Source: an uncultured Verrucomicrobiota bacterium
GTDB taxonomy: Bacteria; Verrucomicrobiota; Verrucomicrobiia; Limisphaerales; J093
Assembly (NCBI GenBank): GCA_964411985.1
Contig: CAYPNF010000005.1
Location: 108,974-172,973 of the forward strand
DNA length: 64,000 nt
Direction of reading: 5' to 3'
Position 1 is the first letter of the stretch; each line of letters begins with the position of its first letter. The notes under the pieces were generated by a model that had not been told where the DNA came from, did no database searches, and was given only the letters and a program-made list of their open reading frames with translations. Position numbers and translations under genes: made by a program. This document shows positions 5,711 to 52,265 of the stretch, piece by piece.

Positions 5711-5803
5711 GGCCCTGCCTGCGTGCCGTCCGCTTGAGGCGCTCGAGACTTGCGCCTATTTAGAAAGCGATCGCTTATGGACCATTCTTTCCCATTTCCT
5801 GGC

Positions 5804-6625
5804 ATGCGCCCGCCTTTCGGGACAACTCTCCGACACCACCGCACCGGTCCGCATGGAACCCTTCATCGATGCTACGGCTTTACCTTGATAGAGCTGCTTG
5901 TCGTGATTGCGATCATCGCCATTCTTGCTGGCATGCTTCTGCCGGCGCTGAGCAAGGCCAAAGGTAAAGGCCAACGCACCGCTTGCCTCAACAACATGCG
6001 CCAAGTTGGGCTGGCCTTGGCCATGTATGTCGATGATAATCACGGCGGCATGCCTCCGATAACCCGTGCTTTGTTTGATTTCGCCAGCCAGACAGCGCCT
6101 GACAATTTCCTGAAGGCGCTGCTGCCCTACGTTGGGAGTTCGACAGGCACGAACCGTGCCACCCCTGTCTATGCCTGCCCAACCCTCAAACCCTCTCCAC
6201 TGCCTGCATACAAACCGACGAAGGCGAGCGATTCCGGCTTACTCGCCAATGCCCTGGTCCTGCAACGAAAGGTCGAACAGGTTGCCAATCCGAGTCTCGT
6301 GATTGTACTCCAGGAAAACTGGTGCCGTTGGAATTACCTGCTCAACCAGCCGGAAGGTAGCGACCAAGGGGGGTATACCCAATGGCACACTTGGACGGCA
6401 ACAACAGACACCTCGACTGGGTGGAGTGGAACCGCCCGCGAGCACTTTTCCAACGTGCATGAGCAGGGAGGAAACCTGGTCCACGTGGACGGTCATGCGG
6501 GCTACCGAAAGTATCGGAGTCTGACCAGCGGTGACTTTGGCCTAGTGGACCCATCTACCAAACGGAGCGATGCCTACCAGCCGACGGAGGCACATTCCCG
6601 CAAAACCTATGCGCCAGCCTTCTAG
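5804..6625 (+). CDS. Prepilin-type N-terminal cleavage/methylation protein with C-terminal H-X9-DG motif (DUF1559-type pseudopilin-like protein)
   Basis: G|[28 protein letters not shown] is the class III signal with cleavage site and a Glu at +5. The C-terminus carries [12 protein letters not shown] (H-X9-DG). Start set at the Met giving a 25-aa basic leader; the ORF tool start is 5750. Confidence 0.75.
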
Positions 6626-40799: not shown

Positions 40800-43700
40800 A
40801 TGGATAACCTGGGATCGAACGGTCACGCACGCCGACACGGCAGGGCAGACCTGCTGCTCTGGTTGGCCGTCGTTTCTGCAGCTACGTTCCTCTCGGGCTT
40901 GTGCCTTTCCGCCGAAGGGACTTCTGAAGCACCCATCACCTCCACCGCCAACCTGCGTGCTCTGTCACAGAGCGAGCCATCTCGCGCGTGCTGGGTGGAC
41001 CTGGACGCCCGAATCCTGGACTTCGGGCCGCACAAGGTTCTTCTGCAGGATAGTACAGGCAACCTGCTTCTGGAGGTTCCCTCGTTGCCACCAGGTGCCA
41101 AACCGGGAGCCAGGGTTCGGCTTCGGGGGCTGGCTATGGCAAGAGAGGGCTGGGTCTTCGCCGGTCGCTTGCCGCTTCTGGTGAATGATGGGATTCATGC
41201 CGAGTCTGAGGTTGCTTCGCGCGTCTGGTTTTCAGCAGGGAAATACCCCATCCATGCCGAGTTCTTCCAAGGAGCGGGGGAACAGGTGCTGGACTTGGCT
41301 TATGAAGGACCGGGGATGGCCCTGGCACCCATTCCGCCCTCCGCCTGGTCCCATGATCCGGTTCCCGGAACGAGCGCGAAATCTGAGCCAGGCCTCAAAT
41401 ACGCTTACTACGAGGGGACTTGGTCCGCCTTGCCCGATTTCCGGACTCTGACCGCTGTGAAGCAAGGGGTTGTAGACCAGATCCAACTTGCCGGACGCGC
41501 TCGCAATGAGAACTACGGATTCTGCTTTGATGGCTATCTCCATCTGCCGAAGGACGGAGAGTATACTCTGCATCTCAAGTCTGATGACGGCGCGCGATTG
41601 GTGGTGGAGAGCTACTCGTGCGAGATCCTCGAATCGACAGGGGGTGTGACACAGCCGAAGCCCATCCAACCGGGCCAACCCATGGCAGACAGCAACGAAC
41701 TCGTCTGGTCAGAAGTGGCCGCCAAGGTTCGGTTTGTCGGCGAGACCGAGGACTCCCTGCAGGTGGAGTTGACCACGGAAAGTGGCCGGATGACGGCGGA
41801 GGTTTTCGAGAAGATGGAGGGCCTTCGACTGCTCCTGCCTGAGAGCGAGGTGCGGATGCGGGGCGCGGTGCAGGGAGTGTTCAACGCCCATGGGGAGGTC
41901 ATCGCAGGACGCCTGCTGGTTCCAGGTCTTCAAACCCTGTCTATTGACCAAATCCCCAGCGCACGCTGGCTTCGCAGGCCAATCGAAAGCCTCTCCAATC
42001 TCGCATCCAGGATCGATCGCAAGCATACCGGTGAGTTGGTGAGGTTGAAAGGTACGATCCTTCGTGCGCAGAAAGAAGATGTGCCCTGCCTGGACGACGC
42101 CACGGGACGCGCGCTCCTGTACGGGATGGGGCAGATTCCTGATGAGCACGGCTCGAATGTCGAAGCGTTTGGCTTCCTGAGCCGGGAAGGAACCCATTGG
42201 GTGATGCGACCTGCTTTTGTAAGGCCAGCCTTAGCGCAGCCTGAGTCCATCCAGCGTCCAATCCTAACCAACGTTGTCCAAATTCAAGAACTGACGCCCG
42301 AGGAAGCGAATCGCAGATATCCGGTGGAGGTTCGTGGAGTGATCACTACTCGCAGCACGGGAGCAGCCCGAGTGCAGGATCGAACCCGCGGCATCTATGT
42401 GGCAGGGGTGGTGGGAGGCGAGGGAGACGGCCCACTGCCAGGTGGAGTCTATGTGGTGAAGGGTAATTCAGATCCCGGAGCGTTCGGCCCCACCCTGGCC
42501 ACCACCGGGATGGTCTACCTGGGACGGGGGCAGATGCCTGAACCCATTCACCCAACCTGGGAACAGCTGATCACGGGCAGTCTGGACGGGACCTTCATCG
42601 AGGTGGAGGGCGTGGTGCAGAAAGTGGAGGGACAAACCATGACCCTCGCGGTCAAGGGCGGGTATCTGAAGGTGTACGTGGAACGTCTGGGGAATGTGAA
42701 CCTTGCGGAGTATGATGGCTGCACGGTGACCATCCGAGGGGCCTTTAATCCGCAATTTAACGCCGAGACCCGACAGATCACTGGGGCCGGCCTCGATGTC
42801 CCTTCGCCGGCTTGCATCCAGATCGAGGAACTTGCGCCCAAGGACCCTTTCGCTACCCAATCCAAGAAGATCAGCGAGCTTAGGCACTTTGACATTCGTT
42901 CCAGCTACTTTCATCAAGTGAAGCTTCTGGGACAGGTGTTACACGCGGGAGTCGATCACAGTTTCTTGTTGGATGAGACTGGCGGGATCCGGTTCATTCA
43001 ACGAATATTTATGCCCTTGGCTCCTGGCGATCAGGTGGCGATCGTAGGGTATCCTGATCTAAGCGGCCCTTTTCCTGTCCTGCGCCAGGCCCGGGTTGCG
43101 AGGCAAGGCTCCGGATCCCTCCCCGATCCCAAGCCCATTCAAGCGGACGAGGTTTCGGGCCTGGAGTTGGATTGCAGGCTCGTCGAGATCGAGGGAACTC
43201 TGGTGGACATTTCTACCGGCCAGAACGAAACCACCCTGCAGATCCAATCGGGCGCACGATTGTTCGCTGCCCGGCTGCCGATGGACCGCAAAAAAACCAA
43301 AGTCATCGCTAAAGGAAGTGTGCTGCGGTTGACGGGCGTCTGCGCAATGCTACCCCCCTTGGTCCCAGGCTCGCCCCCGGAGAGTTTTGAGTTGCATCTG
43401 AATTCGTCTGATGACGTTACCGTTCTTCAGCACCCCAGCTGGTGGACTTTGAAGCACAGCCTGGCCCTGGCGGGAGGGTTGAGCGCCGTCCTGCTCCTCT
43501 CGGCTCTCTGGATCCGACAACTCCATCGGCGTGTGGAGTTGAGGACTCAGCAGTTGCGGAATGAGGTGGACGGACACAAGCAAACGGCTGCTCAATTACA
43601 GGAGAAGACCAAGGCACTCGAGATCGAGGTGGAGGAGCGCAAGAGAGCCGAGCAGGAAGCCAGGAAAGCGGAGGTGGCAGCTCAAGCCGCCAACAAGGCC

Positions 43701-45269
43701 AAAAGTGAGTTTCTCGCCAATATGAGCCATGAGATCCGCACCCCGATGAACGCCATCATTGGGATGAGCAGCCTCATGCTCGATACCAAGCTGGATGAGG
43801 AACAAGCCGAATTCGCCACCACCGTACGCACCAGTGGCGAGGCCCTTCTGGGCATTATTAATGATATCCTTGATTTCTCGAAAATCGAAGCCGGCAAACT
43901 CCATTTCGAGGCCCTCGATTTCAGCCTCTCCGATGTGGTCGAGAGTACCGCCGAACTCGTCGCAGAAAAAGCCCAGGCAAAGGGCGTCGAACTCGCCCTC
44001 CTGATCGAAAGCCAGGTTCCCGTCGCGCTGCGCGGGGATGCCGGACGCCTCCGGCAAATCCTGCTCAACCTCCTCAGCAACGCTGTCAAGTTCACGGAAA
44101 AAGGGGAAGTCTGCCTTGAAGTCACCCAACTCGACTCTAACGCGCGGGAAGTAACCCTTCGTTTCAGCGTGCGCGATACTGGGAAGGGCATCGCCCCAGG
44201 AGCCCTTGGCCGCCTCTTCAACCCTTTCGAACAGGAGGATTCTTCGACGACTCGCCGGTTTGGAGGCACGGGGCTTGGCCTGGCTATTTGCCGTAAGCTG
44301 GTGGAGATCATGCGTGGCAGGATTTGGGCTGAAAGCGTCGTCGGCGCCGGCTCCACGTTCTACTTCACCGCGGTTTTCGAGAAGCAGGACGCCGCAGGCA
44401 CTCCCACTCTCGCGCCGGAGCTCGGCCTTGCTGACCTGCGGGTTCTTGCGGTGGATGACAACGCTACGAATCGGAAGATCCTGCAATACCAGTTGCGGAG
44501 CTTCGGCATCTCTCATTTGGGCGAGGCTGCTAGTGGCGCGGAAGCGTTGGCTCTGATGGAGCAATCAGCCGAGAATGGGGAGCCTTTCCAGCTCGCCATC
44601 CTTGATTTTCAGATGCCAGGCATGGACGGCCAGATGCTCGCTACGCGGACCCAGGAACACCCCTTGCTGGAAGGCACCCGGCTGATCCTCCTAACCTCCA
44701 TCTGCCAACGGCTCGATCCGGAGCGACTCAAACAGGCCGGGATCGATGGCTGCCTGGTGAAACCTGCAAAACCGGCACAACTCCTGGATTGCATCCGTCG
44801 CGTGATGTCCGCCGTGAAACCAAGAATGTCGCAACGGGCGAAACCTGTGACTCCAGACTTGATTGTGATACCCGAGGGCAGAGGCAAACCTGTTCGCATT
44901 TTGCTGGCTGAAGACAACATCGTGAACCAGAAAGTGGCCCTCAAACAACTTCAGAAACTGGGTATCACCGCCGATGCGGTGGCGAACGGAATCGAAGTTC
45001 TGGAGGCCACCAGGCGAATCGATTACGATATCATCCTCATGGATTGTCTCATGCCGGAAATGGACGGCTTTGCCGCCGCCCGCACGATCCGTGGTCGGGA
45101 GGAAATGAGCGGTTCCCCTCCTATCCGGATCATTGCCATGACCGCGAATGCCCTGCAAGGGGATCGGGAAAAATGCTTAGAGGCTGGAATGGACGACTAC
45201 ATTGCCAAACCGGTGAGGCTGGAGGAACTGAGCAAAGTCATTGAGAGAAACCTGCCCGTTCGCTCGTGA
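40800..45269 (+). CDS. Hybrid sensor histidine kinase/response regulator with a large periplasmic sensor containing a PA14-like domain, one TM, HisKA+HATPase, and two receiver domains
   Basis: Signal/TM at N-terminus. PA14-like [58 protein letters not shown]. Coiled coil. H-box [13 protein letters not shown]; G-box [16 protein letters not shown]1 [11 protein letters not shown]...DFQMPGMDG; REC2 [13 protein letters not shown]...DCLMPEMDG. Confidence 0.85.
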
Positions 45270-45628: not shown

Positions 45629-46097
45629 ACTTCACACAAGTCGCTTTTCAAATTCTACCTGCATCCCTGGCCCGATCTTTGGGCCAATCAAAGTGTAAGA
45701 ATGCCTGATATCAATAATTAAGTACACTGCGGTCCGCATTTTGGCAAGCAGACATTAAGAGTCTTCTTAAGTGTGTTCCGTGTGAACTAGGTATAATGTA
45801 ATATATTGTCCGTAAGATAGTTAAACTAGATTCTGGCCCTCCAAGGACTATCAAAGAAAACATTCTTGCGTGGGAAACTTACTCTTTGGCTAGCAAATGT
45901 CTGGCGAGGATTCCCCCCTGCGGTGAGGTCGCTTGGAAAGAGAAACTATGATGAACATGAAGGAACAGGAAGAGGGTTCTTCTTCATGCATCATCATGAA
46001 CTTCACGGTGAACTCCCTTTTCTCTTGCTCTAGCCGCAGGGACATCGTAAGTAAGTCACCACTCTTCGCGCCCTTCTGGCGTAGGGAGGTGGTGCAA

Positions 46098-46182
46098 GCC
46101 CGCGTGGCGGAATTGGCAGACGCGCTAGATTCAGGTTCTAGTAGGTAACACTGTACAGGTTCAAGTCCTGTCGCGGGCACCA
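46098..46182 (+). tRNA. tRNA-Leu (anticodon CAG), CCA encoded
   Basis: Cloverleaf folded by hand. Acceptor GCCCGCG/CGCGGGC; anticodon stem CTAGA/TCTAG; loop TTCAGGT (CAG with G37); 13-nt variable arm; T-arm ACAGG-TTCAAGT-CCTGT; A73; CCA. Confidence 0.9.
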
Positions 46183-46769
46183 TCTTTCTTCATCAGGAAT
46201 GGTGTTCGAGGCACGGGCTCGGACTAAGAATCCTGGACTATGCAGACTCGCGTGAGTTCAGTCGAAAAGGTGGAACCCTCAACGATGTTAACCACCCTGA
46301 AGGAGTACGGAGTGAGCCAAGATTTCACTATTCAAGGGGATCTAAGCTGGGAAGCTTGAGTACCGCGAGGGTTGGATATGGGGTAACGTGTATCTGCGCG
46401 CGTTGCGGAGGCAACTGGAGACCTGCATCGCCAAGAATCTTGGCTCCCGCCATTTGGAGGATACCAAGCACCGGGCGGAGTTGCGCAAAATCAAGAAGGA
46501 GATGGCAGGGCTGAAGAAGAAACTGTCTGCGCTTCAGGTCCGAAAGGCTCAGTTGGCGCGAGAGACCGGAAAGTAGCTGATCACGTCCGATCTGTTGCCG
46601 GTTCGAGAAACAGTTCAACCTTAGGCCGAACGGGGCCTGAAACGTCGCAGGTTAGGACTGTCCCGATGATGTTGAGGGCGTAGGCTCCCCTGACTCGGAA
46701 CTTGGGTATCGCAGGCAGTGTTTGAGGAACGGGGGGGACGCCTGCGGCCGGCGACCTTGTCTTCCATCG

Positions 46770-46935
46770 CAAACTATTCCTTGGCTCCATCGATTTGCTT
46801 CGGGCTTGCATGCAGGGACCCCTTTTTGCGGTCTCACGAGTCCAAACTCAGTTTGCCAGAGTGATGGCCACCAACATCAGGTCTGGTCGCCACGACGATC
46901 ATGGTTTTCATCAGGGTGAAAACCCTGTTCCTGGA
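46770..46935 (-). pseudogene. Decayed 5' fragment copy of the type IV pilin-like gene at 47186..47560
   Basis: ~75% nucleotide identity to the first ~150 nt of the intact pilin gene (gttttcaccctgatgaaaaccatgatcgtcgtggcga vs ggcttcaccctggtggaaatcatgatcgtcgtggcga). Translation gives a corrupted FTLMKTMIVVATR class-III signal followed by a stop; no intact ORF. Confidence 0.45.
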
Positions 46936-47120
46936 CGGTTTGATTCTCAGCTTGTGCCCTTGTGTTACTGAGTTGTTGCTGCTGTCGGGCGAGTTGAACC
47001 TCAGGGGATGATTGGTGATTAGGTGCCAACCTCCATCCGCATGATTCGTCACAGGTCGAATTGAGCCGAAACCCTGTCCCTTCGATTGTTTTGAGAAATG
47101 GCGGGGGGATGGCAGACCTC

Positions 47121-47185: not shown

Positions 47186-47560
47186 TTACGGTGCCGGTGC
47201 CGGAGCTGCAGCTGCAGCGCCACCAGGAAGGACGTGGTTAGCCACGTCACACGTGGGATCCGCTCCCAGGACTCCGGGAGTGTATTTGCCGCCCGCTGGG
47301 CAGGTAGGCACAACGCCATTCTTCAAATAGTTCGCGTAGTTAGGAACGGCTACCCCGTTGGCAATCTTCTCCTCAAGACCGCACTGCTCTTTGGCGCCAT
47401 CGATTTGTTTAAGGTTTGCTATGCAAGCATTCTTTTGGGCCGTCTGGCGAGCCTTGACGAAGTTCGGCAAGGCAATTGCCGCAAGCAAACCAATGATCGC
47501 CACGACGATCATGATTTCCACCAGGGTGAAGCCCGCTTTCTTGGAGGTGTTAATCTTCAT
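47186..47560 (-). CDS. Type IV pilin / type II secretion pseudopilin-like protein (prepilin-type N-terminal cleavage/methylation domain)
   Basis: MKINTSKKAG|FTLVEIMIVVAIIGLLAAIALPNF is the class III signal with Glu+5. Cys pair in the C-terminal half; Ala/Pro-rich tail; SD AAGGA 8 nt upstream. Confidence 0.8.
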   Translation of the reverse strand: MKINTSKKAGFTLVEIMIVVAIIGLLAAIALPNFVKARQTAQKNACIANLKQIDGAKEQCGLEEKIANGVAVPNYANYLKNGVVPTCPAGGKYTPGVLGADPTCDVANHVLPGGAAAAAPAPAP

Positions 47561-47958
47561 GCTTTTCCTTTATAGTTATAGGTTGTTGTTACTCGCTTAG
47601 CGGTGTGAACCCCTATGGAGAGCTTCTGATTATTGCTTTTCTCGGTTCACGCATTGCTATCCACAGACCGCACTCTATCCTCTAAGCATTGATTATGCCA
47701 CTAAGGTGCTGAACTTTCAATGGATTTTCTTTGGCTCTGTAAGTAACTGTAAGCAAAAATGTTGTGATGTTATTGGTGTTGAACTGGGTAGGCACTGGCT
47801 AAGTGACTCTGCAGAAAGTGTCCAACTTCTAGGCACAAAATGCCTTAATTCTTTTTAGCGAGCCCAGGTTTGTATCGATGGGTCTAGACCGTTATAGAGC
47901 GACTTGAGCCCTGGATTTTAGATGATTTCCAAAATGCCGATAACTAAGGTGGTCTGAT
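47561..47958. promoter_or_regulatory. AT-rich divergent intergenic region between the pilin-like gene and the GT-C-like membrane protein gene (probable divergent promoters)
   Basis: ~400 nt markedly AT-rich relative to the ~60% GC surroundings, with no ORF of substance; inferred only from composition and gene arrangement. Confidence 0.3.
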
Positions 47959-49500
47959 ATGTTGACTAAGGATGAATCGGTTGGGGAGCCGCTCCCGGGT
48001 TCGCCGCAGCACGCGTGCGATGAACGCGACCGTTTGGCGAGGCTCTTGATATGGGCGATAGCCTTTTTAGTGTTACTATTTTCAATCCTCAAAGTCGTCA
48101 TGCTTGGCTATTTGCCAATTGATGATGCTCTGAGGTATGCAGCGCGAGCCGTGGCTGGCAAGAGTTGGGACCAGATCCTCGTGCTGCGTCCCGATGCCCC
48201 ACTCGATCATAACCCAGGATGGAACTTGCTCCTTGGAGGAGTTCATAGGGTCGCGAATTGGAATCAGGACGAGCTGGTTACGGGCAGCGTGGTTTCTCTC
48301 TTCTGCCTCTTTTGTGTTTCACCGTTGTTTCTCTTTCGACGCCCGGAGGCTTGGATCACGTCGTTGGCCATCAGTTGCCTCACTCTGGGCTTTGCTGATC
48401 GGATTACTATTGGCCGGCCTTTCCTAATTACCATGGCATTCTCGGTTTTTGTTTTGGTGCTTTGGGGGCGTACTGAAGCAAAGAACTGGAGGCTTTGGGG
48501 CATTACTACCTTGGGCTTTGCCGCAACTTCCTATTTTCACGGTAGTTGGTATCAGAGCGTTCTGTTGGTGGGCGCGTTTCTCTTATCGGGCCGAGTGGCA
48601 CGATCGATCGAATTGGGCAGTTGCTGGTTGGCTGGGAGTTTGGCTGGTGCCGTGTTTACCGGGGATCCAGTTCGCTACCTGGCTGATGGCGTGAGTATTG
48701 CTTTCAGTTCAGCGACTACGGCTCCTGTGGCCCGGTTGAACGTGATCGAGCTTCAGCCTTCGGGTGGGGTTTTCATTGCCGTGATCATTGTGATCCTCAT
48801 CCTGGTGGTCCGTAGTATGCTTGGTCTGAAGCCCACAGATGTGTTAAGGGATCCCGCTTTCATCCTGGCAGTAATAGGCTGGTTGCTGGGAATGAAGATT
48901 CTCAGATTCTGGGTCGACTGGGGCATGGTGGGTTTCCTCGTTTGGATGACGTTTCGTCTGGAGGAGATCTTCGACGCGATTCTCTCGGGCTCGATCAAGC
49001 GGCGACTTGCTGCTTGTTGTTTCCTCTATATGACCTTCTTTCTGACCCTGACTGGTGATACTGGAGGACGGTGGTCGAGCGCGCTTACCTGGGAGTTTGT
49101 TGAGGAGAAGAATCCGGAGTTAGCGGAATGGATCCCTCAGCCGGGGGGCATCGTCTACACTGCGGACATGATTCTCTTTTACCGCACCTTCTTCAAGAAC
49201 CCTCATGCCCCTTGGCGTTACATCCTCGGTTTTGAGTGTACTTTCATGCCAAAGGAGGACCTTGAGGTCTACCGGAAGATTCTTTGGAATTTCGGGACTC
49301 ACAAAGCCTACGCGCCTTGGGTAGCCAAAATGAGACCCGAAGACCGGCTTTTCATCCGGGCCAATTCTGGGGCGCAGCCTCGAATATCGGAGTTGGAGTG
49401 GTACTACGCTGCTACTGATACTTGGATCGGTCGCTTGCCCCGGGGGGCTACCTCAGCAGGCCCTGCGGCTACCCCCGCTTTGGCACCCGCAACCAAATAG
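47959..49500 (+). CDS. Polytopic membrane protein, probable GT-C-fold glycosyltransferase (ArnT/GtrC/PMT-like)
   Basis: 513 aa with ~11-13 TM helices. Asp-Asp motif immediately after TM1 in the first external loop (LGYLPIDDALRY). Followed by a polyprenyl-phosphate-sugar-type GT2. Confidence 0.65.
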   Translation: MLTKDESVGEPLPGSPQHACDERDRLARLLIWAIAFLVLLFSILKVVMLGYLPIDDALRYAARAVAGKSWDQILVLRPDAPLDHNPGWNLLLGGVHRVANWNQDELVTGSVVSLFCLFCVSPLFLFRRPEAWITSLAISCLTLGFADRITIGRPFLITMAFSVFVLVLWGRTEAKNWRLWGITTLGFAATSYFHGSWYQSVLLVGAFLLSGRVARSIELGSCWLAGSLAGAVFTGDPVRYLADGVSIAFSSATTAPVARLNVIELQPSGGVFIAVIIVILILVVRSMLGLKPTDVLRDPAFILAVIGWLLGMKILRFWVDWGMVGFLVWMTFRLEEIFDAILSGSIKRRLAACCFLYMTFFLTLTGDTGGRWSSALTWEFVEEKNPELAEWIPQPGGIVYTADMILFYRTFFKNPHAPWRYILGFECTFMPKEDLEVYRKILWNFGTHKAYAPWVAKMRPEDRLFIRANSGAQPRISELEWYYAATDTWIGRLPRGATSAGPAATPALAPATK

Positions 49501-50738
49501 GTAATAGCGCGTGCCATGCCGTGAACACCCACGAAAAACCAGAACGCAGTCCGGACGAGGACTTGATTCCTTTTCAGGAGTCCTCGGTCGAGTTGACCAT
49601 CCTGATGCCGTGCCTCGATGAGGCGGAGACCCTGGCAGCTTGCGTGAGCAAGGCCCTTACTTTTCTGAGAACAGCAGGAATCAGCGGGGAAGTCCTCATT
49701 GCTGATAACGGGAGCACCGACGGCTCTCAGGAGATTGGCAGGGCTGCAGGGGCGCGCGTGGTGCAAATCCGGGAAAAAGGATACGGGAGTGCCCTGCGCG
49801 GTGGAATTGAAGCGGCGAAGGGGCGTTACATCATCATGGGGGATGCCGACGACAGTTATGACTTTCTAGCGGCAGCCCCTTTTCTCGAAAAAATGCGCGA
49901 AGGCTGCCAATTGGTCATGGGAAATAGGTTTCTGGGAGGGATCCAACCAGGCGCCATGCCTTTCCTCCATAGATACCTGGGAAACCCGGTGCTGAGTTTT
50001 CTGGGGCGACTCTTCTTTGGCGGACCGATCGGCGATTTTCACTGTGGGCTGCGCGGCTTCGACCGTGAGGCGATCCGGGCGTTGGGACTGCACACCCCCG
50101 GCATGGAGTTTGCCACCGAGATGGTCGTTAAGGCATCAACGGCCGGCTTGAGGATTGGTGAGGTGCCTACGACGCTCTCTCCGGATGGGCGCTCGCGGCC
50201 GCCCCACTTGCGAACGTGGCGGGATGGTTGGCGCCACCTTCGGTTCATGCTGCTGTACAGTCCGCGGTGGCTTTTCCTTTACCCGGGTCTGCTGCTTATG
50301 GTCCTGGGATTCGGCGTGGGCTTCTGGGTCTGGCTAGCACCGCGCAAGATTGGGAGTCTGACCCTCGACGTCCATACGCTTCTTTTCTGTGGTTTGGCTG
50401 GCATGCTTGGCTTTCAAGCGGTCTGCTTTGCGGTCTTCACTAAGGCATTCGCTATCCGCCAGGGACTCCTCCCGCCCGACGCGCGTTTCCAGAACATTCT
50501 CAGGTTTGCCCGCCTTGAGGTGGGACTGATCTTGGGCGGGTTTCTCCTCGCCATGGGTTTCTGGATGGGCTGGCAAGCTTTCTCCACTTGGCAGCATGTC
50601 TCTTTCGGTCCGCTGAATCCTTCGGAGACCTTGCGCCTCGTGATTCCCAGTTTCCTGGCCATCGATTTGGGTGCGCAGGTTTGCCTGACCAGCTTCTTTG
50701 TCACTGTCCTCGGGCTGGGTGCTAGGCAGGCACAATAA
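49422..50738 (+). CDS. GT2-family polyprenyl-phosphate glycosyltransferase (GtrB/ArnC/DPM1-like) with C-terminal TM domain
   Basis: LTILMPCLDEAETL, IADNGSTDGS and IIMGDADDSYDF (DAD) motifs, plus four C-terminal TM helices. The real start may be the GTG near 49521, just after the upstream stop; the ORF tool ATG overlaps the upstream gene by 79 nt. Confidence 0.8.
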   Translation: MDRSLAPGGYLSRPCGYPRFGTRNQIGNSACHAVNTHEKPERSPDEDLIPFQESSVELTILMPCLDEAETLAACVSKALTFLRTAGISGEVLIADNGSTDGSQEIGRAAGARVVQIREKGYGSALRGGIEAAKGRYIIMGDADDSYDFLAAAPFLEKMREGCQLVMGNRFLGGIQPGAMPFLHRYLGNPVLSFLGRLFFGGPIGDFHCGLRGFDREAIRALGLHTPGMEFATEMVVKASTAGLRIGEVPTTLSPDGRSRPPHLRTWRDGWRHLRFMLLYSPRWLFLYPGLLLMVLGFGVGFWVWLAPRKIGSLTLDVHTLLFCGLAGMLGFQAVCFAVFTKAFAIRQGLLPPDARFQNILRFARLEVGLILGGFLLAMGFWMGWQAFSTWQHVSFGPLNPSETLRLVIPSFLAIDLGAQVCLTSFFVTVLGLGARQAQ

Positions 50739-50740
50739 CC

Positions 50741-51301
50741 ATGACCCCTCTAGATCTCCTTTTGCAGAAATGGCGCATTGCCCAGGTCAAACCTTGGGTA
50801 CCAGCGGATGCGCGGGTGCTGGATATCGGCTGCGCGGAGGGGGCACTTTTTGAGCAGTTGGGCAATCGCCTCGCCTCTGGGTTGGGATTGGATCCAGATC
50901 TAAAAGAGTCGAAAACCTGCGGATTGTACAAGCTCTTGCCTGGCGGCTTCCCGGACGGCACGCCGGCAGGGACCGAACCCTTTGATATCATCACGATGCT
51001 CGCCGTCCTGGAGCACGTTCCTTGTGACCTGCAGGAAGACTGGGCGAGGGCTTGCCATCGCTTGTTGAAACCCAACGGCATGGTTCTTATCACGGTGCCT
51101 TCCCCGCTGGTGGACCCCATCCTCCACCTGCTCAGCAAGCTTCGGCTGGTTCATGGAATGTGTCTCGAGCAACACTACGGCTTTGCGGCTGCGAAGACCC
51201 CAGAGATCTTCCGACCCCACGGCTTCACTCTAGTTCGACACCAACGTTTTGAGTTGGGCCTGAACCACTTCTTCGCGTTCCGGAAAACAACCCAGACCTA
51301 A
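50741..51301 (+). CDS. Class I SAM-dependent methyltransferase
   Basis: Motif I VLDIGCAEGALF; short 186-aa Rossmann-type methyltransferase. 2-nt gap after the GT2 gene. Confidence 0.75.
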   Translation: MTPLDLLLQKWRIAQVKPWVPADARVLDIGCAEGALFEQLGNRLASGLGLDPDLKESKTCGLYKLLPGGFPDGTPAGTEPFDIITMLAVLEHVPCDLQEDWARACHRLLKPNGMVLITVPSPLVDPILHLLSKLRLVHGMCLEQHYGFAAAKTPEIFRPHGFTLVRHQRFELGLNHFFAFRKTTQT

Positions 51302-51521: not shown

Positions 51522-52265
51522 ATGCGTTCTTATGCACCGAGGCTCCAGGCCTCCTTCCTCTGTGGGTTAGCAGTCGTCACTCTTCCTGGCGTTTTAGGCG
51601 AAGATGCGCCTGAAAATCCCACGGCTTGGAAGAGCAGCGCTGCTCTGAGTCTCACCGCCACCGCTGGCAATACCGAGCAGTTGATGGTGGCTGGTAACCT
51701 CTTGACTGCCAAGAAGTGGGAGAAAAACGAGCTGGGATTTGGCGCCAACTTCACCTATGGCGAAGACCAAGGCGACAAGAACGCGGAGAGCGTGGGTGGT
51801 TTCGGACAGTATAACCGCCTATTCAGCGACAAGTTCTATGTGTACGGCCGCGTGGATGCTTTGCACGATGCGATTGCCGACATCGAGTACCGCGTCTCGC
51901 TGAGCCCGGGTGCTGGTTACTATTTCCTGAAGAATGATCGTTTCACGCTCAGCGGTGAGTTCGGTCCTGGCTACGTTTTTGAAAAGCTGGGTTCCGACAC
52001 GCGTGACTACCTGACCCTGCGTTTTGGGGAGAGGTTCACCTGGAAGATCAGCGACCGCGCGCGGCTCTGGCAGTCGGCGGACTACAATCCCCGAACGGAG
52101 AATTTCGGTGACTACGTACTGAACGCTGAGGTTGGGGTGGAAAGCGACATTTCGAAGCATGTTGCCCTGCAGGCCTATGTTCAGGACAGCTACCGCAGCG
52201 AGCCAGCGGCAGGACGTGAGAGCAACGACCTCAAGGTCATGGCCGGTATCAAATACAAGTTCTAA
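51522..52265 (+). CDS. DUF481 (YdiY-like) outer-membrane beta-barrel protein
   Basis: Signal peptide. Alternating amphipathic beta-strands. C-terminal GIKYKF with terminal Phe. AT-rich sequence immediately upstream. Confidence 0.7.
   Translation: MRSYAPRLQASFLCGLAVVTLPGVLGEDAPENPTAWKSSAALSLTATAGNTEQLMVAGNLLTAKKWEKNELGFGANFTYGEDQGDKNAESVGGFGQYNRLFSDKFYVYGRVDALHDAIADIEYRVSLSPGAGYYFLKNDRFTLSGEFGPGYVFEKLGSDTRDYLTLRFGERFTWKISDRARLWQSADYNPRTENFGDYVLNAEVGVESDISKHVALQAYVQDSYRSEPAAGRESNDLKVMAGIKYKF

Follow-up and report, generated by a model that had tools for sequence, protein, structure and literature searches.

[quoted passage not shown] In streptococci, GtrB makes a lipid-linked hexose and the GT-C PgtC2 glucosylates extracytoplasmic proteins (PMC12041528); in Haloferax, AglJ is a Dol-P-hexose glycosyltransferase and the SAM methyltransferase AglP acts on one of the sugars in the lipid-linked glycan (PMC3871713). 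We compared these systems, as well as PglL/PilO (TfpO), with a cluster in the window (i.e., the whole 64-kb stretch of DNA analyzed here), in which a type IV pilin-like gene on the minus strand is divergently paired with three plus-strand genes encoding a GT-C-fold membrane glycosyltransferase, a polyprenyl-phosphate glycosyltransferase-type GT2 and a class I SAM-dependent methyltransferase; all four were confirmed at the coordinates given below.

Like TfpW (bioRxiv 10.1101/2020.04.19.049825), the window GT-C is a polytopic GT-C-type protein with approx. 11 TM helices whose N-terminus is cytoplasmic; a DD(x) motif lies in its first periplasmic loop, and its C-terminal domain is periplasmic. 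In both cases, the gene directly adjoins a type IV pilin gene, and the donor (putative in the window) is a monosaccharide linked to polyprenyl phosphate instead of an Und-PP-oligosaccharide. This likeness is one of description, and TfpW is longer (646 vs. 513 aa) and its gene lies downstream of the pilin gene, whereas the window GT-C gene is divergent. The resemblance to TfpW proposed in the first-pass annotation thus holds as an analogy, but membership of the window GT-C in TfpW was not supported, as its C-terminal domain is small and alpha/beta with no TPR, as opposed to the TPR domain of TfpW, and as the donor chemistry differs, i.e., a PRPP/DprE1/DprE2 arabinose pathway for TfpW as compared to a Dol-P-Man synthase/GtrB-class GT2 plus a methyltransferase in the window. 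The locus resembles the three-component systems in that a GT2 polyprenyl-phosphate glycosyltransferase and a GT-C are co-encoded and that their predicted topology and overall logic are the same (PMC11127046). Unlike these systems, it has an extra conserved SAM methyltransferase and a GT-C from another sequence family that lacks annotation, shows no signs of a prophage or island, and has a pilin, not O-antigen, as its favored candidate target. Moreover, the three-component systems include a flippase gene, whereas the cluster carries no GtrA/SMR, MATE or MurJ gene and the 64-kb window as a whole has no flippase candidate; the proposed search for a GtrA-like flippase was negative in the cluster.

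The three enzymes encoded beside the pilin gene

The 513-aa membrane protein (47959..49500, plus strand) matched no Pfam or NCBIfam family, and these searches stayed blank for its family when 35 homologues were searched at E <= 5; PgtC2, by comparison, belongs to the YfhO family (PF09586) and PglL/PilO to the Wzy_C family, neither of which is detected here. Its top structural matches were exclusively GT-C-type folds, including Pmt4, Pmt1/2, DPY19 and STT3, and the best-placed transporter reached a match probability of 0.28 and a TM-score of 0.12. The predicted topology comprises approx. 11 TM helices with the N-terminus inside; D55-D56 (in GYLPIDDALRY), directly past the first long helix (model residues 16-48), is placed in the first periplasmic loop, and the model ends in a periplasmic alpha/beta domain of roughly 130 aa. 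Across 334 homologues, conservation of the DD motif and of a group of charged residues that face the periplasm is 97% or higher. As the fold is of the GT-C type and the motif is near-invariant, with neither a transporter match nor a variable DD pair observed, the initial reading of the protein as a GT-C with a DD motif after TM1 stands. As modeled, it is a GT-C-fold enzyme of an undescribed sequence family; a literature search for the family found no paper, and a search with its profile extended to only 640 clusters and to no entry of PDB or Pfam.

The GT2 (49521..50738, plus strand) is 405 aa long in the public gene call, which starts at a GTG at 49521; the ORF as listed starts further 5', at a TTG at 49422, which gives a 79-nt overlap with the upstream gene. 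Its GT-A catalytic domain matches PF00535, with the DAD motif in GDADDSYDF, and its C-terminus has four hydrophobic segments representing TM helices (precomputed Pfam PF26629, GT2_TM_C), as in archaeal Dol-P-Man synthase, whereas GtrB and ArnC have two. The best NCBIfam matches, all below the curated cut-offs, were AglJ (E 5e-35), Dol-P-hexose transferase and PpgS. Among PDB sequences, the Dol-P-Man synthase of P. furiosus (5mlz) ranked first (E 3.6e-10), followed by two chondroitin-synthase entries and then ArnC and GtrB, and fold matches 1-23 of the model (pLDDT 80) were all Dol-P-Man synthase, ArnC or GtrB. These matches support the earlier assignment of the GT2 to the enzymes that synthesize polyprenyl-phosphate-sugar donors. 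The GT-C family represents a new sequence family inside the known three-component periplasmic glycosylation scheme, and we are fairly confident that the module uses a polyprenyl-phosphate-linked sugar together with a GT-C transferase, as in the streptococcal system, where a GtrB-type GT2 supplies a lipid-linked hexose to a GT-C (PMC12041528).

The third enzyme (50741..51301, plus strand; 186 aa) matches Methyltransf_23 (E 6e-16), carries motif I as VLDIGCAEG and has no TM segment, and is predicted to be small and cytoplasmic. Given gaps of 20 nt between the GT-C and GT2 genes and 2 nt between the GT2 and methyltransferase genes, the three genes probably form one operon. Methyltransferase orthologues (41-52% identical) lie 3' of a GT2 orthologue in loci L053, L167 and L166, and fused GT2-methyltransferase proteins adjoin GT-C homologues in L016, L170 and L171. 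The order GT-C, GT2, methyltransferase is found in the window and L167 and the order GT2, methyltransferase, GT-C in L169, L016 and L053, while the GT2 and GT-C genes are divergent in L033. Overall, this GT2 and/or methyltransferase, separate or fused, accompanies the GT-C gene in 12 of the 88 GT-C loci surveyed, concentrated among the nearest relatives of the window GT-C. The GT2 and methyltransferase genes are adjacent in many genomes and fused in some, and the pair is also kept, in Acidobacteria among others, beside GT-C-like proteins that are not related to this family. These data support the methyltransferase as a conserved partner of this GT2, in line with the proposal that it completes the set, and it probably acts in the same pathway as the GT2 and GT-C. 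AglJ, which ranked first in NCBIfam for the GT2, and AglP likewise combine a Dol-P-hexose enzyme with a methyltransferase, but AglP, to which the window enzyme is likened by role and not by orthology, modifies a hexuronic acid within a tetrasaccharide, and the archaeal pathway is one of N-glycosylation with the oligosaccharyltransferase AglB as final enzyme.

It is highly improbable that the juxtaposition of these genes is meaningless, i.e., that the 513-aa protein is non-catalytic or a transporter and that the GT2 and methyltransferase serve unrelated pathways. The blank Pfam and NCBIfam assignments would fit such a reading, but the restriction of the top structural matches to GT-C types, the near-invariance of a catalytic-type motif and the recurrence of the set in three gene orders and in domain fusions all argue against it.

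Genomic contexts of the GT-C family

Counting pilins as near when located within 1.5 kb, we found pilin ORFs at 10 of the 88 GT-C loci (approx. 11%); these loci come from two phyla and their pilins from at least three subfamilies. Pilin ORF density was fivefold higher near GT-C homologues than far from them (0.059 vs. 0.012 per kb; binomial P = 2e-4 per ORF and 7e-3 per locus). Three of these 10 loci sit in pilB-pilC-pilR clusters; in L005 and L044, the GT-C gene has pilA-type pilins on one side and pilR-pilC-pilB on the other (L005 also has mglA/mglB-like genes), and pilC is present in L021. Moreover, a YfhO-like gene adjoins a pilin-GT-C-pilin unit in L011, and a PilR-like sigma-54 regulator follows the GT2, methyltransferase and GT-C genes in L053. 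The pilin linkage seen in the window thus recurs across two phyla, and the family often neighbors pilus genes in Verrucomicrobiota and Omnitrophota; no pilB or pilC was found within the 64-kb window. Viewed from the pilin side, one of 80 loci with the closest relatives of the window pilin had a GT-C homologue, these loci being mostly short contigs, with only approx. 20 having at least 3 kb of flank on both sides. As the GT-C/GT2/methyltransferase set recurs in differing gene orders and pilin ORFs are approx. five times denser nearby, the four-gene arrangement is more than chance; the 12 partner loci and the 10 pilin loci with their enrichment show that the module is real and recurrently linked to pili.

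Approximately 68 of the 88 loci had neither a pilin nor the GT2 or methyltransferase nearby. The commonest context was an MBL-fold hydrolase followed by the GT-C gene (often duplicated) and a pterin-4a dehydratase, and most family members occur in conserved chromosomal synteny and housekeeping contexts. Mobility of the cluster, which had been suggested by comparison with island- or phage-borne systems beside tRNA genes, found no support, given this synteny, the housekeeping genes that flank the cluster in the window, and the absence of an integrase, of an att-like tRNA repeat and of relatives in phage or plasmid collections.

The absence of pilins from most GT-C loci is also what would be expected if the three-gene module decorated a non-protein envelope glycan in the periplasm (lipid A/core, O-antigen or exopolysaccharide), as ArnC/ArnT or GtrB/GtrC do, with the pilin a mere neighbor because surface-structure genes tend to cluster. 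Seven downstream neighbors of GT-C genes are RmlD/epimerase-type sugar-nucleotide enzymes, an NKWYS capsular-synthesis protein adjoins the GT-C in L001, and in Acidobacteria the GT2-methyltransferase pair is accompanied by MurJ-type flippases, by GT4 enzymes and by a GtrC-like protein (PF19528), all of which are consistent with a glycan target. We nevertheless consider this possible but rather unlikely, as the pilin enrichment spans differing orientations and pilin subfamilies, the GT-C gene is embedded in whole pilus clusters in L005 and L044, and the window cluster contains no LPS or O-antigen genes.

Alternatively, the GT-C may, as PMT or PgtC2 do, O-glycosylate proteins generally in the periplasm and have many secreted or membrane clients; pilins would be one abundant client, and the enzyme would therefore be a widely conserved core gene found beside pilins only sometimes. 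The presence of the family in the genomes of 297 species, often in housekeeping synteny, and the ranking of Pmt4, Pmt1/2, DPY19 and STT3 among the top structural matches agree with this, GtrB with PgtC2 offers a precedent (PMC12041528), and Neisseria PglL is likewise unlinked to pilE (bioRxiv 10.1101/2020.04.19.049825). However, the closest relatives of the window GT-C are those with pilin or GT2-methyltransferase neighbors, which suggests a specialized sub-lineage, and tandem GT-C paralogues at 12 loci suggest diversified specificities, which makes a single general enzyme improbable.

The pilin as candidate acceptor

The pilin gene (47186..47560, minus strand; 124 aa) matches PF07963 (N_methyl, E 1.9e-8) and TIGR02532, and its N-terminus matches Myxococcus PilA. 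The pilin carries a class III signal, in which KKAG precedes the mature N-terminus FTLVEIMIVVAIIGLLAAIA, with the prepilin leader cut between G and FTLVE ahead of a hydrophobic N-terminal helix. Its residues Cys46, Cys87, Cys104 and His109 are conserved, and its Ala/Pro-rich C-terminal tail is unique to it. The window pilin is 43-57% identical to pilins flanking GT-C homologues in L005, L011, L021, L033, L044 and L171, and in L005, L044 and L021 these related pilins adjoin pilB/pilC. The alpha-beta loop contains no Ser or Thr and hence no obvious Ser/Thr-rich acceptor loop, unlike the Ser/Thr-rich disordered acceptor regions of the streptococcal GtrB/PgtC2 system; the mature pilin has no N-X-S/T sequon, the Ala/Pro tail lacks Ser and Thr, and the pilin alignment reveals no obvious conserved acceptor residue. 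This shortage of obvious O-glycosylation sites is a further point for an envelope glycan as the target.

A second pilin copy (46693..46950, minus strand), detected as a direct repeat (60 nt, 70% identity to the pilin gene) and by tblastn (31% over 86 aa), has in-frame stops, and its G-F-T-L-x-E motif has decayed to V-F-T-L-M-K. Since such pilins normally occur elsewhere in tandem arrays of 2-4, this copy is probably what is left of one. Directly 3' of the pilin gene, a terminator-like hairpin with a T-run (47152-47127, minus strand; 11-bp stem with 6 GC pairs, tail CTTTTTG) was found by consensus match. In the 47685..47720 region 5' of the gene (minus strand), a sigma-54-like TGGCATAATCAATGCT at 47700-47685 overlaps a sigma-70-like TTGAAA-17-CATAAT at 47720-47692; these matches are weak and not above chance over the window, but deserve mention given that homologous loci are flanked by PilR-like sigma-54 regulators.

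Overall, the explanation that we favor, to which we give about an even chance, is a lipid-linked-sugar periplasmic glycosylation module with the adjoining pilin as most likely acceptor. On the cytoplasmic face, the GT2 would load polyprenyl (undecaprenyl) phosphate with a hexose-type sugar taken from a nucleotide sugar, and the cytoplasmic methyltransferase would most simply O-methylate this sugar or its precursor. The lipid-linked sugar would then be flipped by a protein encoded outside the cluster, and the GT-C would pass it to a periplasmic acceptor via the invariant D55-D56 loop and conserved Arg, His and Glu residues at the periplasmic membrane face. We tentatively place the divergent type IV pilin in this acceptor role, either as the protein itself or through a glycan already on it; the pilin is a plausible and reasonable, if unproven, target. 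Against it count the approx. 68 GT-C loci with neither pilin nor partner genes, the single GT-C homologue among the 80 loci of its closest relatives, its lack of evident acceptor residues, and the absence of flippase, pilB and pilC candidates from the window. What the analysis shows directly are the folds, the conserved motifs, the conserved linkage of the genes and the pilin enrichment; the donor, the methylation target, the flipping step and the acceptor are inferred. PglL/PilO enzymes, which are also polytopic, work in the periplasm and are encoded beside a major pilin gene, transfer Und-PP-linked oligosaccharides en bloc, whereas the window protein matches GT-C folds. Both kinds of enzyme may be present side by side and work one after the other, since in L171 a separate Wzy_C (PglL/PilO-type) protein flanks the same array of four tandem pilins as the GT-C gene, on its other side. 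If the pilin is the acceptor, the locus would represent a functional analogue of pilA-tfpW or pilA-tfpO.

Gene layout around the pilin

The four reading frames described in the first-pass annotation, i.e., those encoding a pilin, a 513-aa membrane protein, a GT2 glycosyltransferase and a SAM methyltransferase (MT), were all present at the coordinates it assigned to them. The prepilin gene (47186-47560, minus strand; 124 aa) matched PF07963 and TIGR02532. Its product begins with the leader MKINTSKKAG, which ends in Gly and is followed directly, after the cleavage site, by FTLVEIMIVVAIIGLLAAIALP (likewise FTLVEIMIVVAIIGLLAAIA, read from the same site), and the F-T-L-x-E motif and hydrophobic alpha1-N helix are those of a type IV pilin. 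Downstream of the pilin gene there is a hairpin and T-run, and just past this terminator, between a tRNA gene and the pilin gene, lies a decayed pilin paralogue (46693-46950, minus strand) with in-frame stops and a processing motif degenerated to VFTLMK. Most related loci have tandem pilin arrays, and this copy probably survives from one; its placement between tRNA and pilin fits a shrunken array rather than an insertion.

A region of 398 bp separates the pilin start from the divergently transcribed gene for the 513-aa polytopic protein (47959-49500, plus strand), which had no match in Pfam or NCBIfam. This region contains a sigma-54-type -24/-12 element, TGGCATAATCAATGCT (47685-47700, minus strand), approx. 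125 nt 5' of the pilin start codon, although comparable matches across the window were not above chance; PilR-like sigma-54 activators flank homologous loci and make the element suggestive. The GT2 gene (49521-50738, plus strand) matched PF00535 and encodes the motif GDADDSYDF and four C-terminal hydrophobic segments. Its start had been listed as a TTG at 49422, overlapping the upstream gene; the publicly called gene encodes 405 aa, so that the real start is the GTG at 49521, 20 nt past the upstream stop. The MT gene (50741-51301, plus strand; 186 aa, Methyltransf_23) starts 2 nt beyond the GT2 stop. The window also encodes a second prepilin-type (N_methyl) protein of 291 aa, unrelated to the pilin studied here (5750-6625, plus strand) and typical of the many pilin-like proteins of PVC bacteria; no PilB, PilC or PilD genes were found in the 64 kb.

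The first-pass annotation had likened the cluster to Gtr-type systems borne on islands or phages beside tRNAs, and this setting did not hold up. A tRNA-Leu(CAG) gene is located 1 kb beyond the pilin gene (46098-46182, plus strand), near an AT-rich, gene-poor stretch (45630-45900; GC approx. 0.50-0.55 as compared to approx. 0.60 elsewhere), and the dip in GC at 45-49 kb consists largely of two AT-rich intergenic regions. No direct, att-like repeat of the tRNA-Leu end was found, none of the open reading frames near the locus encoded an integrase or mobile-element protein, and tblastn searches with the 513-aa protein against phage and plasmid collections returned nothing. The flanking genes have metabolic or regulatory roles (6-phosphogluconate dehydrogenase, glycerate kinase, BatA/VWA genes and a 1489-aa hybrid sensor kinase that combines two receiver domains with a PA14 domain at its N-terminus, 40800-45269, plus strand, ending approx. 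1.9 kb from the pilin gene). A genomic island or prophage was rejected on the missing att repeat, the lack of an integrase near the locus, the housekeeping flanks and the absence of phage or plasmid relatives.

The GtrA-like flippase that the same annotation had proposed looking for was likewise absent from the cluster: between 45.3 and 52.3 kb there was no further intact polytopic reading frame, and the neighbours there are the tRNA, a VWA/BatA protein and a DUF481 outer-membrane protein. A flippase gene may lie elsewhere in the genome. The DUF481 beta-barrel gene (51522-52265, plus strand) starts 220 bp downstream of the MT gene and was considered as a component of the module; no homologue of the 513-aa gene has it as a conserved neighbour, and it is probably unrelated.

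A GT-C family and its predicted lipid-linked donor

The AlphaFold (AF2) model of the 513-aa protein was confident (pLDDT 89.2, pTM 0.89), with approx. 11 transmembrane helices, the N-terminus inside, positive residues in the predicted cytoplasmic loops, a first periplasmic loop containing two short helices, and a C-terminal domain of approx. 130 residues that is modeled as mixed alpha/beta and periplasmic. When this model was compared to the PDB with Foldseek, the top 21 matches were all GT-C enzymes (STT3, PglB, AftA, DPY19, AglB, ALG9 and ArnT). The Asp-Asp motif immediately after the first transmembrane helix was near-invariant among 334 non-identical homologues (D56 in 333 and D55 in 324), so that the GT-C identity proposed from this motif is now borne out by both fold and conservation. 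Helix number, fold and the acidic motif in the first extracytoplasmic loop (DD, DxD or ExD in such enzymes) agree with the GT-C_A type. R59, R148, R153, H194, E264, R316 and D320, on the predicted periplasmic membrane face, were at least 94% conserved in these homologues, as were D462 and R463 of the C-terminal domain. In the model, this set of residues has the appearance of the active site of a GT-C enzyme that depends on a lipid-phosphate sugar.

By sequence, this GT-C protein stands apart. More than 285 homologues were found (38-47% identical), every one labeled "hypothetical", and a genome scan placed the family in 297 species, nearly all represented by metagenome-assembled genomes, of the Verrucomicrobiota (Limisphaerales/subdivision 3) and Omnitrophota. 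An exhaustive profile search of 1.84 billion clusters recovered only 640 representative clusters, indicating a compact family separate from known GT-C families. The family profile matched nothing in the PDB below E 0.8, and a Pfam search of 35 homologues at E ≤ 5 gave no family match, the lone hit being PMT in one homologue (E 3.9). Membership in a known GT-C sequence family (PMT/PMT_2/ArnT of GT39/GT83, STT3, YfhO, the GtrC family GT_STM0557 or others in Pfam) was therefore rejected, as no profile matched even at permissive thresholds. Literature searches turned up neither this family nor a GT2-MT-GT-C trio. Tandem GT-C duplicates were present in 12 related loci (e.g., L013, L036, L041, L042, L066 and L075), in the order MBL-hydrolase, GT-C, GT-C, pterin-4a-dehydratase, which suggests that the paralogues diversified in specificity.

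The assignment of the GT2 protein to the polyprenyl-phosphate-sugar synthases was supported by sequence and fold matches in the PDB. Its best sequence match was the Dol-P-Man synthase of Pyrococcus (5mlz; E 3.6e-10); two chondroitin-synthase entries came next, and then ArnC (5e-7) and the GtrB protein sll0501 (2.6e-4). The top 23 fold matches of its model (pLDDT 80) were all Dol-P-Man synthase, ArnC or GtrB. The best NCBIfam matches were AglJ, Dol-P-hexose transferase and PpgS, all under their curated cut-offs. The closest GT2 homologues, largely from Acidobacteria, combine PF00535 with PF26629 (GT2_TM_C) and are 61-66% identical to the window protein, which exceeds the identity of the GT-C protein to any of its own relatives. 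Because the neighbouring, conserved GT2 belongs with Dol-P-Man synthase, ArnC and GtrB, we infer that the GT-C donor would be a polyprenyl-phosphate-linked sugar.

To assess linkage, we used a census of 88 non-redundant loci of the GT-C family, 12 of which carried a GT2 and/or MT partner beside the GT-C gene. The suggestion that a methyltransferase completes the GT-C/GT2 set was upheld, as the trio recurs among the nearest relatives of the window protein: one locus (L167) has the window's gene order of GT-C, GT2_TM_C and a 186-aa MT, three (L169, L016 and L053) have the order GT2, MT, GT-C, and in an Omnitrophota locus (L033) the GT2 gene is divergent from the GT-C gene. Moreover, GT2-methyltransferase fusions of 484-520 aa, combining PF00535 with Methyltransf_12/23, adjoin the GT-C gene in three loci (L016:80-1591, minus strand; L170:2484-3938, minus strand; L171:1-1563, plus strand). 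Such domain fusions are evidence for one shared pathway, and the MT probably acts in the same pathway as the GT2/GT-C module.

As the MT has no transmembrane segment and SAM is cytoplasmic, methylation must precede flipping. The MT substrate would most simply be the sugar of the lipid-linked donor or a precursor of it. A precedent for sugar methylation is AglP, which acts in the AglJ pathway (PMC3871713). PADLOC anti-phage defence models yielded a weak generic methyltransferase match only. In the loci with the closest GT2 homologues, one or two methyltransferases come after GT2_TM_C, in the company of unrelated GT-C-like proteins, i.e., a PF19528 GtrC-like protein together with MurJ (L164), a polytopic protein with CIDDALYY after its first transmembrane helix (L165) and a 512-aa protein without a match to the 513-aa family profile (L166). 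That the GT2-MT pair is kept beside other GT-C-like proteins makes it look like a portable donor module, which possibly spread horizontally.

Overall, a periplasmic glycosylation module of the three-component type (PMC11127046), in which a GT-C transferase uses a polyprenyl-phosphate sugar, is the best-supported reading of the cluster and one that we consider likely.

Association with type IV pili and the acceptor

In 10 of the 88 loci, a pilin-like reading frame was located no more than 1.5 kb from the GT-C gene, and the density of such frames was 0.059 per kb near GT-C genes as compared to 0.012 per kb further off. The binomial P values for this enrichment (2e-4 per reading frame and 7e-3 per locus) are indicative only, as the discovery locus is part of the sample and the genomes are related to one another. 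The adjoining pilins represent at least three subfamilies in varied orientations; in six loci (L005, L011, L021, L033, L044 and L171) they share 43-57% identity with that of the window. In three of these (L005, L044 and L021; 47-57% identical) the pilins adjoin T2SSE/T2SSF genes. Two loci place the GT-C gene between these pilins and genes for PilB (T2SSE plus MshEN), PilC and a sigma-54 PilR-like regulator (L005, 7583-13256; L044, 8952-13407), and L021 has pilC. L005 also encodes Roadblock/MglB-like and Ras/Arf-like (MglA-like) proteins, so that a Myxococcus-style polarity module directly adjoins a GT-C gene in Verrucomicrobiota. Past GT2-MT-GT-C, L053 encodes a histidine kinase and a regulator with 42-44% identity to the PilR-like proteins, and L011 has the order pilin-GT-C-pilin beside a YfhO-like GT-C. 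Four tandem pilins in L171 (3377-7232; 43-56% identical to the window pilin) have the GT-C gene on one side and a Wzy_C protein of the PglL/PilO type on the other, and two different glycosylation enzymes may act on one pilin array. A neighbour-joining tree grouped the window GT-C with those of L005 and L016, separate from a large clade with the gene order MBL, GT-C, pterin-4a.

On the basis of this neighbourhood, the adjacent type IV pilin or its glycan is the most likely acceptor, an assignment that we make tentatively. Against it, approx. three quarters of the GT-C loci have housekeeping neighbours only, an MBL-fold hydrolase being the upstream gene in 30 of 71 cases and a pterin-4a dehydratase the downstream gene in 22 of 77. 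The subfamily of the window pilin is also not a usual GT-C neighbour: a GT-C gene was found beside its closest relatives in 1 of 80 metagenomic loci (mostly contigs of 1-3 kb, approx. 20 with at least 3 kb of flank on each side), and these relatives occur mostly in pilin-only tandem arrays. That the same module modifies an envelope glycan instead is somewhat less likely. Ser and Thr are both missing from the alpha-beta loop and the Ala/Pro tail of the window pilin, whose mature part also lacks a sequon, and no conserved Ser/Thr/Asn acceptor site was evident in the pilins adjoining GT-C genes. We regard a role of the GT-C protein in general protein O-glycosylation as improbable.

Relation to known systems and significance

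As compared to described three-component systems, the window cluster differs in its new GT-C sequence family, its Dol-P-Man-synthase-like four-helix GT2 and its additional MT, and in having no linked flippase. With Gtr-type O-antigen systems it shares a GtrB-like GT2, but not the linked flippase or the prophage/island context. The likeness to TfpW that had been suggested stands in part. The tfpW gene is likewise located beside the major pilin gene, yet downstream and on the same strand (bioRxiv 10.1101/2020.04.19.049825), whereas the window GT-C gene is divergent; and TfpW, here compared by its description, has a large periplasmic C-terminal TPR domain, while the window protein has an alpha/beta domain of approx. 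130 residues without a TPR match in Pfam. PglL, PilO and TfpO carry a Wzy_C domain (PF04932), which the window GT-C lacks and which in L171 belongs to a separate protein. Streptococcal GtrB with PgtC2 offers a functional likeness (PMC12041528), although the window GT-C has no YfhO match. No DprE1/E2 or UbiA-type genes of the decaprenyl-P-arabinose pathway were found among the window genes scanned, mainly at 33-60 kb. By analogy, the locus would work like pilA-tfpW or streptococcal GtrB/PgtC2, with the pilin as its most likely acceptor, without being a member of either family.

A more far-reaching and doubtful reading is that the 513-aa proteins are a new GT-C family of approx. 300 species in Verrucomicrobiota and Omnitrophota that ancestrally attached a methylated hexose, carried on polyprenyl phosphate and supplied by a dedicated GT2-MT module, to type IV pilins by a route distinct from PglL/PilO and TfpW. 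As parts of this reading, the acceptor might be a residue other than Ser/Thr, and no dedicated flippase might be needed if the four-helix GT2_TM_C domain aids translocation.

O-antigens, lipid A, teichoic acids and, more recently, streptococcal proteins are well-known targets of periplasmic glycosylation in which GT2 and GT-C proteins use lipid-linked monosaccharides. Pilin glycans in model bacteria influence resistance to phages, adhesion and the dynamics of the pilus. Should the acceptor be an envelope glycan, the module would count among the three-component systems as a new but more ordinary case. The locus would add a GT-C sequence family annotated in no database and a conserved MT partner, sometimes fused to GT2, which implies methylated-sugar donors. 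If true, the ancestral pilin-glycosylation reading would represent a third, independent route of pilin glycosylation, of interest to the pilus and glycobiology fields, and would provide new enzymes for glycoengineering. For two poorly studied, largely uncultured phyla, the locus would add a recurrent link to type IV pili and a concrete gene set with which to probe pilus glycosylation in both.
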